A stretch of DNA of 64,000 nucleotides from contig CAVPPB010000003.1 of the NCBI GenBank assembly GCA_963707215.1, positions 896,001 through 960,000 of the forward strand, written 5' to 3'. The stretch comes from an uncultured Chloroflexia bacterium (GTDB lineage Bacteria; Chloroflexota; Limnocylindria; Limnocylindrales; CSP1-4). Positions within the stretch are counted from its first letter, which is position 1. Each line of letters starts with the position of its first letter. This document shows, one piece after another, positions 41,549 to 43,994 of this stretch. The position numbers were made by a program, and so were the translations under genes. Below the pieces are notes generated by a model that was given only the letters and a program-made list of their open reading frames with translations, was not told the DNA's origin and did not search any database.

Positions 41549-42436
41549 TCAATGCGTCGCCAGCTCAGGGCCCAGGTCGGCCACGAAGCGCCGGATGACC
41601 TGCGCGAGCCGGGGCCCTGCCTCTGCGCCGGCCGCGAGGACCTCCTCGTGACTGAGCGGCGCGCCCGTGTACCCGGCGGCCGCGTTGGTGACGAGCGAGA
41701 CGCCGACGACCCGGACCCCGGCCCAGCGGAGGGCGATCGCTTCGAGGACCGTCGACATCCCGACCGCATCGGCTCCCAGCGTTCGGAGCATCCGGATCTC
41801 GGCCGGGGTCTCGTAGGACGGTCCGACCAGTCCCACGTACACGCCTTCCCTGAGCTTCACGCCCTCGGTCTCGCCGGCGGCGCGCATGCGTTCGCGCAGG
41901 CGATCGTCGTAGACCTCCGAGAGATCGGGGAAGCGAGGTCCGATCGTGTCCGCGTTGGGGCCCAGCAGCGGGGTCCGGCCGGTCAGGTTCAGGTGATCGC
42001 TGATCACCATGATCGTTCCAGGTCGCAGGAGCGGATTGATGCCGCCGGCCGCATTCGTCAGGACGACCGCCCCGGCCCCCAGCCGGGCCATGAGGAGCAC
42101 CGGCTGGACCACCAGACCCGGATCGTTGCCCTCGTAGAGGTGCAGGCGGCCCTGGAGCATGACGACCGGGACGCCCGCCAGGCGTCCGAGGAGGACCTGC
42201 CCGACATGTCCCGGGGCCGTCGCGGCCGGCCATCCCGGCAGGTCGTCGAAGGAGATGGCGACGGGGTCCGCCAGGTCGTCGGCGAGCCCACCAAGGCCCG
42301 AGCCGAGGACGATGCCGACCTCGGGTCGGAGGTCGGTCCGGGCCCGGACGGCTCGCTCGAGCGCGTCGAGCTGCTCGGGCAGCTCCGATGGCGGGACGTG
42401 GCGCGACGGGTCCAGGGGCTGGGGCTCGGCGGGCAT
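41549..42436 (-). CDS. punA: Purine-nucleoside phosphorylase (trimeric type)
   Basis: GSGLG, GRLHLYEG, TNAAGG, GPSYETPAE, GMST, LSHEEV; RBS GGAGG. Confidence 0.95.
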   Translation of the reverse strand: MPAEPQPLDPSRHVPPSELPEQLDALERAVRARTDLRPEVGIVLGSGLGGLADDLADPVAISFDDLPGWPAATAPGHVGQVLLGRLAGVPVVMLQGRLHLYEGNDPGLVVQPVLLMARLGAGAVVLTNAAGGINPLLRPGTIMVISDHLNLTGRTPLLGPNADTIGPRFPDLSEVYDDRLRERMRAAGETEGVKLREGVYVGLVGPSYETPAEIRMLRTLGADAVGMSTVLEAIALRWAGVRVVGVSLVTNAAAGYTGAPLSHEEVLAAGAEAGPRLAQVIRRFVADLGPELATH

Positions 42437-42488
42437 GCGGAACCTCCGGTGTACCGGTCGGGAAGGCGGGCGGTCCCGCGGCTTCGCC

Positions 42489-42560
42489 CGCTCGACGGGA
42501 GTACCGACACCGGGATGCCGGTCGCGTCCCGTCGAGCGAGGCCCCGCGGGCGAGCCTCGC
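42489..42560. other. Two strong GC hairpins downstream of the candidate ncRNA
   Basis: CGCTCGACGGGA/TCCCGTCGAGCG (42489-42538); GCGAGGC/GCCTCGC (42536-42560). Confidence 0.6.
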
Positions 42561-42584
42561 GGCCGCCCGGGCGGGCAAGGAAGC

Positions 42585-42741
42585 GCCCGAAGGAACCTTC
42601 GGTCACGGAGACCATTGATGTGATCGCAGGCCGTTCCGATATCCGCGACGCGCTTGAGGCGATCTCCTGCGTCCCGGGTCCCACGTCCCTTCCCTTGATG
42701 TGATCTCGGGTCGGTCCGGGTGTCCGCTGGCCCCTTCGGGC
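42585..42741 (-). ncRNA. Candidate structured ncRNA (~157 nt), family unknown
   Basis: -10 TACTGT 7 nt upstream; 5' GCCCGAAGGGGCC pairs with 3' GGUUCCUUCGGGC using G-U pairs only possible on the minus strand; second stem; internal GCAGG/CCUGC hairpin; GAUCACAUCAA twice. Confidence 0.6.
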
Positions 42742-42748
42742 AAGACCT

Positions 42749-42754
42749 ACAGTA
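42749..42754 (-). promoter_or_regulatory. -10 element TACTGT for the candidate ncRNA
   Basis: Same TANNNT plus 6-7 nt spacing as other promoters in the window. Confidence 0.55.
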
Positions 42755-42783
42755 GTCGGCCGGCCACCATCGACACAACACGG

Positions 42784-42857
42784 TTATCCACGAACTTCCG
42801 GGAATTGCGGGCCGACTGTCCACGGATGCGGGGCCGATGTGGACGGGCGGTGGATAA
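42784..42857. promoter_or_regulatory. Cluster of four DnaA-box-like sites
   Basis: TTATCCACG (42784,+), CTGTCCACG (42816,+), CCGTCCACA (42838-46,-), TTATCCACC (42849-57,-); consensus TTWTNCACA. Confidence 0.65.
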
Positions 42858-42899
42858 CGGCCGGCCGCCCTGCGCCTGGGCCGAGCCTGCCGAGCGGGC

Positions 42900-43994
42900 T
42901 CAGCCGCCGATGGCGTACATCTCCACCTTGGGCAGCGACGCCGTCGCCTCCGTCCTGAGGTCGGAGTAGCGGTCGTCACGAGCACGCCAGGCGGCCGCCA
43001 GGAAGGCCAGCAGCTCGTCGTCGGTGGCCCCGGCACGGATCCGGCCACGGATGTCGCGACCGCGGGTCGCGAACAGGCAGGTGAAGAGCTGGCCGTCGGC
43101 GGACAGGCGGGCCCGGGTGCAGTCGCCGCAGAACGGCTCGCTGACCGAGGTGATGACGCCGATCTCGTCCGAGCCGTCGGCGTACCGCCAGCGGTTCGCA
43201 ACCTCGCCCCGGTACGACGACGGCAGGGCCTCGAGCGGCAGCTCGGCCGCGATCCGGGCAACGATCTCCGCGCCGGTGACCACGTCGTCGAGACGCCAGC
43301 CGTTGGAGTTGCCGACGTCCATGTACTCGATGAAGCGCAACACGAGGCCTTCGTCGCGAGCCCAGCGGGCCATCGGCAGGATGCCGTCGTCGTTCACGCC
43401 CCGCTTCACGACCATGTTCACCTTGACGGGGGCGAGGCCTTCCTGCCGGGCGGCGGCGATCCCATCGAGCACCCGCTTCACCGGGAAGTCGACGCCGTTC
43501 ATCGCCCGGAAGGTGGCGTCGTCGAGCGAGTCGAGGCTGACCGTCACCCGGCGGAGACCGGCGTCCGCCAGCGGGCGGGCCAGGGCCCGGAGGCCGGCGC
43601 CGTTGGTGGTGAGGGTGAGATCGAGCGGCGACCCGTCCGACGTCCGGAGGACCGCGAGCTGGGCGATGAGCTCCGGCAGATCGCGGCGCACGAGCGGCTC
43701 ACCTCCGGTGATGCGGAGCTTCTCGACCCCGAGCTCGGTGAACAGTCGGGCGACCCGGGCCAGCTCCTCGAAGGTCAGGATCTCGGCTCGCGGCAGGAAC
43801 GGGAAGTCGCGGCCGTAGACCTCGCGGGGCATGCAGTAGACGCATCGGAAGTTGCAGCGATCGGTCACCGAGAGGCGGAGGTCCCGGATCGGCCGATCGA
43901 GACGGTCGCGCGGCAGCTCGCCCGGGACGACGGCTCGCTCGTCGAGCCCGTTGTCCCCGGAGGCCGGAGGGGTCGGCAGAACGGGCAGCTCCAT
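42900..43994 (-). CDS. moaA: GTP 3',8-cyclase MoaA
   Basis: DRCNFRCVYCMP, PFCGDCTRARL...C, C-terminal IGG; leaderless -10 TACCAT. Confidence 0.97.
   Translation of the reverse strand: MELPVLPTPPASGDNGLDERAVVPGELPRDRLDRPIRDLRLSVTDRCNFRCVYCMPREVYGRDFPFLPRAEILTFEELARVARLFTELGVEKLRITGGEPLVRRDLPELIAQLAVLRTSDGSPLDLTLTTNGAGLRALARPLADAGLRRVTVSLDSLDDATFRAMNGVDFPVKRVLDGIAAARQEGLAPVKVNMVVKRGVNDDGILPMARWARDEGLVLRFIEYMDVGNSNGWRLDDVVTGAEIVARIAAELPLEALPSSYRGEVANRWRYADGSDEIGVITSVSEPFCGDCTRARLSADGQLFTCLFATRGRDIRGRIRAGATDDELLAFLAAAWRARDDRYSDLRTEATASLPKVEMYAIGG

Follow-up and report, generated by a model that had tools for sequence, protein, structure and literature searches.

A 64,000-nucleotide (nt) window from an uncultured bacterium of Candidatus (Ca.) Limnocylindria, Chloroflexota (GenBank assembly GCA_963707215.1, contig CAVPPB010000003.1, positions 896,001–960,000), carries on its minus strand, between moaA and punA, a 157-nt RNA that is a stand-alone small-RNA (sRNA) gene of a new family of the class, as far as we searched. 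A covarying stem joins the two ends of the RNA, three hairpins each present a copy of one conserved 13-nt loop, and RNA-library contigs cover the transcribed part. The promoter is of the sigma-70 type and is preceded by DnaA-box-like sites at set positions. The kind of molecule is known and the family is new, with two unusual features, the DnaA-box promoter array and a chassis shared by genes with different interiors. We place about even confidence in the reading that the RNA acts in trans through its loop hairpins, probably under DnaA control and with a protein as the favoured partner.

Architecture of the 157-nt RNA

The core RNA occupies 42741–42585 of the minus strand and is delimited by a 13-bp closing stem. 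Its neighbours lie on the same strand: moaA ends at 42900, and punA (PNP_UDP_1, 41549–42436) starts 149 nt downstream of the core RNA. The 157-mer folds at –73.5 kcal/mol as compared with –59.1 ± 3.9 kcal/mol for shuffled sequences (z –3.7; none of 200 shuffles equals it), and the fold of the plus strand of the same segment is weaker (z –2.2). In a consensus of the window RNA and its four closest orthologues, the closing stem is continued by a short CGG/CCG helix and encloses three loop hairpins, with one repeat in the apical loop of each hairpin. The parts are as follows.

42585–42741, minus strand: core RNA, 157 nt, with closing stem, short continuation and three loop hairpins (fold, orthologue consensus, family model, covariation)
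42729–42741, minus strand: 5' strand of the closing stem, GCCCGAAGGGGCC, paired with 42597–42585
42585–42597, minus strand: 3' strand of the closing stem, GGUUCCUUCGGGC (fold, orthologue consensus, covariation)
42695–42707, minus strand: loop 1, GAGAUCACAUCAA, closed by CCC/GGG (fold, consensus, loop logo)
42654–42666, minus strand: loop 2, degenerate, GAGAUCGCCUCAA, on stem GACGC/GCGUC (fold, consensus)
42615–42627, minus strand: loop 3, GCGAUCACAUCAA (fold, consensus)

An earlier note, made from the letters of this stretch, had proposed a discrete structured noncoding RNA with its own promoter, and conserved –35 and –10 elements, a covarying family and RNA-library contigs confined to the gene now bear this out. 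The –10 element TACTGT (42754–42749), the following AGGTCTT (42748–42742) and the start at G42741 are found as it described them, and in the proposed closing stem all 13 positions pair, including two G-U pairs that are valid on the minus strand only. The 11-mer GAUCACAUCAA, which it reported twice (42705–42695 and 42625–42615), proves to be the most conserved part of the family and is joined by a degenerate third repeat, GAUCGCCUCAA, at 42664–42654. The same note took the repeats to be probably unpaired; they do lie in loops, specifically the apical loops of hairpins, rather than being merely unpaired. Its second stem survives as the CGG/CCG continuation, kept in the window RNA and the closest orthologues, and the remainder of that stem is not kept. 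The GCAGG/CCUGC hairpin drawn inside it is absent from the minimum-energy fold and is not conserved. Its count of about nine GGA triplets is correct at nine.

A coding role was also considered. The 46-residue open reading frame at 42603–42743 has no Pfam match, and the 59–80-nt members of the family are too short for such a frame, so this reading was rejected.

A covarying family in Ca. Limnocylindria

A BLAST search with 42560–42770 finds the element in 20 of 41 relatives. The covariance model R1, built from 12 single-hairpin sequences (alignment A2) and from one family of the class, matches 90 of 151 class genomes, with 40 of 44 in family f1, 44 of 50 in f4, 5 of 49 in f3, none of 6 in the small-genome family f2 and none of 1 in f5. 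Three unpublished genomes (G118, G142, G153), all matching, are included in this tally, which is 87 of 148 without them. Of 151 genomes sampled from the phylum, 13 match R1, all of them within the class, and none of the 136 phylum genomes outside the class does so at the sensitivity of a one-family model. In the genome of the window, R1 finds three copies: the window RNA, C2:284269-284341 and C3:42728-42811.

An 18-mer over the start and 5' stem, scanned across one genome per species, matched at least 118 stretches. Among the matches listed, nearly all lie in metagenome-assembled genomes (MAGs) labelled Chloroflexota, Candidatus Limnocylindrales or Limnocylindria. The actinobacterial setting that the earlier note had implied is thus not upheld, the relatives that carry the element being labelled Chloroflexota, Ca. 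Limnocylindria. Seven matches with other phylum labels (L049, L060, L062, L084, L088, L095, L105) were set aside as chance, as they lack the family promoter or the consensus 3' end; five of them have no 3' partner, and L084 and L095 have only a loose 3' pattern 224–288 nt away. By comparison, true members are present at L045, L048 and L110, on contigs whose MAGs carry the labels Deferrimicrobiaceae, Sulfomarinibacteraceae and Dormiibacterota; L045 is near-identical to the Chloroflexi-labelled contig L068, and all three contigs may be mis-binned. The 18-mer has no match in viral contigs. Exact copies of the 5' stem number one to three per genome in five genomes, with three in the genome of the window, and copies occupy syntenic places in different genera, upstream of punA or downstream of hflX. 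Since the copies are few, syntenic and absent from viral contigs, an origin from a mobile repeat of the MITE (miniature inverted-repeat transposable element) or REP (repetitive extragenic palindrome) kind, or from a phage, was rejected.

The members follow a common plan, in which a –35 element TTGnCC, a spacer of 17–18 nt, a –10 element TAnnGT, 7 nt, the 13-nt 5' strand, the hairpins, the 3' strand and a tail GYUUYSUUG succeed one another. One to three hairpins per member carry loops reading GAGAUCACAUCAA; most members have a single hairpin and form a rod of 59–80 nt with small internal loops. Covariation was scored on alignment A4, which holds 69 model matches, 66 of them distinct. Across the 66 distinct sequences, 92.4% of cells pair and both sides change in 12 of 21 pairs. 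The covariation score is 0.263 as compared with 0.117 ± 0.007 for shuffled alignments, none of 500 shuffles reaching it, and sliding the partner columns by 1–3 positions lowers pairing to 23–51%. In the closing stem, helix 1 pairs in 100% and helix 2 in 97% of the sequences. Pair 1 is G-C in 50 and U-A in 11 sequences, pair 6 is A-U in 40, G-C in 18 and G-U in 8, and pair 13 is G-C in 42, G-U in 14 and A-U in 10. In f4 and f3 the closing stem has another sequence and retains its pairing. The conservation and covariation that the earlier note had asked of relatives are therefore both present.

The novelty that it suggested was checked against Rfam 15. No family reaches its gathering score on the whole window, at 13 related loci or near the rsmG promoter, and at E values up to 10 the stretch 42350–42950 gives six weak chance matches, the best of them SNORD23 at E 0.07 (20.5 bits against a gathering score of 64). 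Chloroflexi-1 (RF01698) was considered and did not match the RNA. In the part of the source available it is listed for Chloroflexus aggregans only (PMC2864571). The available part of a preprint (10.64898/2026.10.21.760802) describes Chloroflexota arrays with fixed stems and variable loops, an architecture that differs from that of this RNA. In the literature, supplementary files not covered, we found neither a small RNA described for Limnocylindria nor this family.

The conserved apical loop

The loop reads, across the 66 sequences, G, A (56/66), G, A, U, C or U (53 and 11), A or G (39 and 26), C, A, U, C, A, A. The triplets GAU and AUC are invariant in 66 of 66, and variation is limited to the two central positions and one flank. 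In the motif GAGAUYRCAUCAA, a variable centre accordingly separates two invariant triplets that are complementary to each other, with purine flanks. Because the variation is central, between the complementary triplets, the pattern suggests not a linear seed but a small folded cap, in which GAU would pair with AUC under a triloop and a GA/AA internal loop would lie below. As the GAU/AUC pair never varies, covariation neither supports nor opposes its formation.

On either strand, the 11-mer occurs at 64 places in 34 of 41 genomes, as compared with none for a reversed control pattern, and it is almost exclusive to the sRNA genes. Twenty further 11-mer sites in relatives comprise 9 more sRNA genes of this kind and 11 ordinary coding or unrelated sites. 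We also considered mimicry of the 3' tail of 16S rRNA, as the tail of the same genome, GGAUCACCUCCUUUCU, shares GAUCAC-UC with the loop. The likeness is read as chance because the anti-Shine–Dalgarno core is not preserved and because the positions in common are variable, as in the GAUUGC forms.

The promoter and its DnaA-box-like sites

The promoter region of the window RNA contains the following elements.

42850–42857, minus strand: DnaA-box-like site in reverse orientation, TTATCCAC on the minus strand, at about –110 to –116 (sequence, position count)
42838–42844, minus strand: weaker box core GTCCACA, reverse (seen in the sequence only, outside the position count)
42817–42823, minus strand: box core GTGGACA, forward, at about –80 (sequence, position count)
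42784–42791, minus strand: DnaA-box-like site GTGGATAA, directly upstream of the –35 element, at about –50 to –43 (position count, consensus)
42773–42778, minus strand: –35 element TTGTGT (consensus TTGnCC), with an 18-nt spacer to the –10 element (family alignment)
42749–42754, minus strand: –10 element TACTGT (consensus TAnnGT; 147 upstream regions)
42742–42748, minus strand: conserved AGGTCTT between the –10 element and the start (loci found by BLAST and not selected on that string)

In 147 distinct upstream regions, the –35 and –10 elements are conserved, the latter with T at –13 (124 regions), A at –12 (135) and T at –8 (136), as is an A-rich block, tcGTGGATAA, at –52 to –43. Other families of the class do not keep the AGGTCTT stretch. 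For most loci, positions –5 to +12 follow from the way the loci were found, and these positions were not counted as evidence.

GTGGAYAA boxes are common to the promoters of the family and stand at set positions; we take these sites to match the DnaA-box consensus of the TTATCCACA type. When GTGGA[TCA][ACG]A sites are counted at 126 loci, forward boxes number 109 in the –60 to –41 bin and 47 in the –100 to –81 bin, and the reverse form occurs in the –120 to –101 bin at 60 of the 126 loci. Between –400 and +700, every other 20-nt bin has 0–5 boxes. All three paralogues in the genome of the window have three or four boxes each. At the f4 and f3 loci, at least one box is found in 18 of 18, at –82, –51 or –93, and two or more in 12, as compared with three boxes in total in the 150 nt downstream of these 18 loci. 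A cluster of boxes thus lies at fixed positions beside the promoter, which is of the sigma-70 type, and the RNA is probably controlled by DnaA, as far as sequence can indicate.

Elsewhere in the same genome, a box with –35 and –10 elements at the family spacing is found five times, namely at the three sRNA genes, at the rsmG/gidB promoter and in one probable coding region. The rsmG/gidB site (GidB E 3.5e-31; C3:1679645-1679720, L243) comprises a reverse TTATCCACA, GTGGATAA, TTGACG, 17 nt and TAGCGT; rsmG/gidB is a classical origin-side gene. The dnaA–dnaN spacer (C4:101090-101640), the likely place of oriC, has an AT-rich stretch and nine or more GTGGAC/GTCCAC cores; in a relative (G022, locus L224) this spacer carries a row of three well-formed boxes, separated by 14 and 12 nt. 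As a separate observation, boxes TTATCCACA, GTGGATGA and GTGGATAA lie at C1:241456-241500, about 100 nt upstream of a second ParA-like gene, whose product is 47% identical to the origin-side ParA.

RNA-library contigs and the 3' end

Twenty sequencing runs contain part of 42300–43000, and contigs were compared for four of them, X1–X4 (metatranscriptomes of one study, with 20–25% of the words of that stretch). Each of the four yields one long contig, spanning 42523–42728, 42517–42708, 42536–42731 and 42530–42722. A fifth contig, from X2, is partial: it follows the window over 42659–42727 with 4 mismatches and then diverges. Within 42200–43100 no contig lies on 42200–42516 or 42732–43064, and so none on punA or the boxes; short pieces appear past 43065. 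The features at and beyond the 3' end are listed below.

42517–42731, strand not shown: small whole RNA-library contigs of 192–206 nt with 0–4 mismatches (X1–X4)
42576–42584, minus strand: pyrimidine- and U-rich tail GCUUCCUUG, terminator-like and weak here (GYUUYSUUG tails in the family)
42536–42560, minus strand: downstream hairpin GCGAGGCUCGCCCGCGGGGCCUCGC, probably a 3' extension (within all four long contigs)
42491–42536, minus strand: second conserved hairpin-like element before punA (comparison of punA-linked loci)

A stem followed by a U-rich tail is conserved in the family. In f4 the tails carry runs of four or five U, and the f4 closing stem looks like a true intrinsic terminator. 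At the window locus the contigs continue beyond the tail GCUUCCUUG, which suggests that the closing stem and tail do not end all transcripts here and that the transcript is at least about 215 nt long. The earlier note had allowed for an extension past 42585 through the downstream hairpins; this is probable, as the contigs reach 42517–42536. The GGCCGCGAGG part of the downstream hairpin is kept in L002–L005.

The second element, CUCGACGGGA-CGCGACCGGCAUCCCGGUGUCGGUAC-UCCCGUCGAG, has the core GAYCGGCAUCCCGGUGUCGRUAC in 13 of 14 punA-linked loci. Its Y/R pair covaries (C..G in 6 loci, U..A in 7), as does its outer stem. It occurs once in the genome of the window and has no Rfam match, and it could be an RNA hairpin serving as a punA leader or a DNA palindrome, ATCGRCA-N6-TGYCGAT.

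Proposed mechanism and alternative explanations

In the mechanism that we favour, transcription would start at about G42741 from the sigma-70-type promoter, and the box array upstream of it would probably make synthesis of the RNA depend on the state of DnaA, the replication initiator. Its first 13 nt pair with 42597–42585 in a blunt closing stem, followed by the U-rich tail. This stem may protect the ends and, in most members, also act as the terminator hairpin; at this locus transcripts appear to continue for about 50–70 nt through a further hairpin. The working parts would be the apical hairpins, in which G-A-GAU-YRC-AUC-A-A is displayed on a covarying stem that ends in CC/GG. One such hairpin would be the ancestral state, as compared with three in the window RNA. 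Acting in trans, the hairpins would bind a partner, for which a protein bound in several copies, as a decoy or in a small ribonucleoprotein, is more likely than a long antisense target. The observations above show the gene, its family and structure, the conservation of the promoter, the positions of the boxes and the cover by RNA-library contigs; from them we infer DnaA binding, action in trans and the kind of partner. Two points have good support, namely that the RNA has a promoter of its own, probably a regulated one, and that the loop hairpin is the surface under selection. We lean to a protein partner because the loop is conserved as a folded cap, the number of hairpins varies, and neither CsrA nor Hfq was found. 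Genes for CsrA (PF02599), Hfq and Ro/TROVE proteins were not found in the genome of the window, which is 3.26 Mb long with 72% G+C and 84.8% complete. KhpA and KhpB/Jag genes are present, Jag about 2.3 kb from dnaA, and nothing connects either to the RNA.

Several points weigh against this reading. No partner, of whatever kind, came out of the searches, and the mode of action is therefore deduced indirectly; seeds of 6–8 nt would escape the target searches. There is no box cluster upstream of dnaA itself, and the A-rich box at –50 could equally be an UP-like element or the site of another factor. Alignment A4 was fitted to the model, and 2 of its 69 rows are reverse-strand matches. The contigs give neither strand, true ends nor level, and the four runs, coming from one study, amount to one observation; carry-over of DNA is not formally excludable, though it would not halt at gene borders. 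They also run 50–68 nt past the closing stem, through the hairpin at 42560–42536. Finally, in f1 (the window and 13 loci) punA invariably follows the RNA directly, in the same orientation, which leaves room for a local role.

This last association bears on the possibility, raised by the earlier note, that the RNA is a cis-regulatory leader of punA. In that reading the RNA, together with the hairpins that follow it, would govern read-through or translation of this purine nucleoside phosphorylase gene. The linkage holds in the window, at 12 f1 loci and at L236, even where moaA is not upstream (it usually is; at L007, L012 and L015 its position is occupied by an RDD-family gene or by one for a glycosyl hydrolase), and the contigs passing the closing stem and the second conserved element between the RNA and punA would suit a leader as well. 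However, the RNA is also found at loci without punA, namely the C2 copy in the same genome, L010, L011, L017, L023 and L026. At L010, L011 and L026 it is convergent with the neighbouring thyX, and other members adjoin PRC-barrel genes or other genes. In f4 and f3, punA is absent at 11 of 11 loci, where the neighbours include Lhr, UvrD, a beta-CASP nuclease, uracil phosphoribosyltransferase and CbiQ. Paralogues that share this promoter and stem are found downstream of hflX, no riboswitch family matches, and the contigs stop before punA, although this last point is weak evidence. As members elsewhere lie beside other genes, the gene is autonomous and the punA linkage is limited to one family of the class, and a punA leader is accordingly improbable. 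An RNA that shares most of the favoured mechanism and pairs with one or more mRNAs through its loops, three loops being three seeds, is possible, and we regard it as a clear minority view. Seed-presenting sRNAs of bacteria that lack Hfq typically carry conserved loops, repeated and borne on covarying stems; this RNA has such loops, no Hfq gene was found, and the loop is richer in A and U than the genome around it. Moreover, the leader of parA (soj; C4:67668-67712, promoter TAGAAT), which is short, begins in both genomes of the genus with GAUGUGAUC, a 9-nt complement of the loop. Against pairing with mRNAs, this match is kept in only 2 of 29 orthologous parA leaders, within the genus only, the TAGAAT promoter being widely conserved. 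The 10-mer TTGATGTGAT, the loop complement, has two occurrences in the genome, both on the opposite strand of this gene, and nowhere else, and none of the 20 further 11-mer sites in relatives is a shared target. The loop does not pair more favourably with five gene starts (dnaA, dnaN, parA, the second parA and punA) than with random windows (fractions 0.30–0.99), and the central variation between invariant complementary triplets fits a folded hairpin better than a seed.

Two further readings are less probable still. The selected feature might be the DNA itself, a site that titrates or reactivates DnaA in the manner of datA or of a DnaA-reactivating sequence (DARS), with the transcript as a by-product. 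Three to four boxes of good consensus within about 80 bp, in an array common to all interiors, would suit such a site, but their fixed distances to the conserved –35 and –10 elements point to promoter control, and a titration site needs neither RNA-type covariation, nor G-U pairs valid on one strand, nor an invariant loop. The contigs, too, cover the transcribed part and not the boxes, and we consider the DNA reading very improbable. The likelihood is lowest for a divergent RNA polymerase-binding RNA of the 6S/Ms1 type, which the earlier note had listed first. The ends paired into a closing stem and the discrete transcript seen as isolated contigs in RNA libraries recall these RNAs, but there is no Rfam match even at E values up to 10, most members are single rods of 59–80 nt without a central bubble, and the conserved part is an apical loop rather than a mimic of an open promoter.

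Comparison with known regulatory RNAs

CsrB, RsmY and RsmZ are protein-sponge RNAs in which several hairpins present one short motif. The RNA described here resembles them in its variable number of hairpins with the same motif on each, in being encoded by stand-alone genes, and in copy and repeat numbers that differ between relatives. It differs in its motif, which is GAGAUYRCAUCAA rather than GGA, and has no sequence or Rfam relation to them. The GGA triplets, at RNA positions 17, 25, 49, 54, 61, 68, 75, 98 and 105, lie outside the conserved loops and are not conserved; only that at 75 touches a loop (loop 2, 76–88). Membership in the CsrB class, which the earlier note had raised, is therefore not supported, as the motif conserved in the loops is not GGA and the 84.8%-complete genome yielded no CsrA gene; the RNA may nevertheless act in the manner of a sponge.

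Conserved loops on covarying stems also recall the 6C RNA of Actinobacteria, in which the conserved loops are C-rich, and further sRNAs whose conserved loops are repeated. All occur in high-G+C hosts without Hfq and carry a loop motif that can be repeated. The RNA described here differs from 6C RNA in having no Rfam match, a closing stem that joins its ends and a DnaA-box promoter. With 6S/Ms1 RNA it shares paired 5' and 3' ends and a discrete, stable-looking transcript, and differs in the features given above. Taken together, these comparisons suggest that it works most like a multi-hairpin decoy of the CsrB/Rsm type or a loop-seed sRNA of bacteria without Hfq, and that it belongs to neither family.

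On the side of its control, sda of Bacillus subtilis and nrdAB of Escherichia coli are DnaA-box-controlled genes. They have in common with the gene described here that boxes lie just upstream of the promoter, so that the product reports the state of the initiator; their products, unlike this one, are proteins. To our knowledge no small RNA is under DnaA-box control, and none was found described in the parts of the literature available. The closest parallel is CcnA of Caulobacter crescentus, which the accessible part of its report presents as a noncoding RNA that modulates the master regulators CtrA and GcrA (PMC8959179). As far as that part goes, both would be cell-cycle-controlled noncoding RNAs tied to a master regulator of replication or the cell cycle, here judged from the boxes. 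They differ in phylum and in the sites at the promoter, which here are DnaA-box-like, and have no sequence relation. CcnA is reportedly transcribed from its own CtrA-dependent promoter and is said to pair with the ctrA and gcrA leaders.

RNA regulators of Ca. Limnocylindria, a class known here from MAGs only, are little covered in the literature that we found. The structure of the present family has strong support, its 13-nt recognition loop is sharply conserved and there is evidence that it is expressed; DnaA control, if true, would be a new link from replication initiation to post-transcriptional control.

Paralogues and a shared chassis

The 18-mer search recovered 110 distinct complete elements. 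Their common 5' strand follows from the way they were found; the rest of what they share does not. One promoter, 3' partner strand and tail enclose differing interiors (73–275 nt), which fall into the following classes.

60–79 nt: rods with one loop (36 of the 110 elements)
120–159 nt: two or three loops
about 185 nt: one loop (L051, L071, L111, L149)
80–120 nt: hairpins capped by GCUUGC (the type of the C3:42728 paralogue)
82 nt: a further interior
about 180 nt: a further interior (L069, L120, L131)
274–275 nt: a further interior (L074, L121, L130)

The larger RNAs, whose interiors are unrelated, have no Rfam match at L074, L121, L130, L051, L069, L120 and L071. We tentatively propose, as a minority possibility, that the class has an RNA arm of the DnaA regulon, in which one fixed chassis of box array, promoter, blunt terminating closing stem and U-rich tail carries exchangeable heads. 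The commonest head would then be the GAGAUYRCAUCAA hairpin in one to three copies, and others the CUUG-capped hairpin and the interiors of 82–275 nt. The state of the initiator would be broadcast post-transcriptionally, each head capturing a different protein or RNA of replication, nucleotide supply or the ribosome. A chassis with exchangeable interiors is an unusual gene architecture and could help to find more sRNAs in these genomes.

The paralogue at C3:42728-42811 (L032) has the same promoter, boxes and closing stem as the window RNA and a single hairpin capped by GGGGCUUGCUC, a CUUG-type loop. The gene before it is hflX (domains GTP-bdg_N, GTP-bdg_M and MMR_HSR1), and its relatives at L025, L029 and L016 likewise follow an MMR_HSR1 GTPase. 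The paralogue at C2:284269-284341 (L031; orthologues L159 and L172) is 73 nt long with one loop, GCGAUCGCAUCAA, and has three upstream boxes, TGTGGATGA, GGTGGAAAA and CGTGGATGA. Genes of the family also occur close together: those with 274-nt and 82-nt interiors lie about 1.2 kb apart on shared contigs (L074, L121, L130), and tandem sets of two or three genes within 0.4–1.5 kb are found at L104, L067, L083, L094 and L113.

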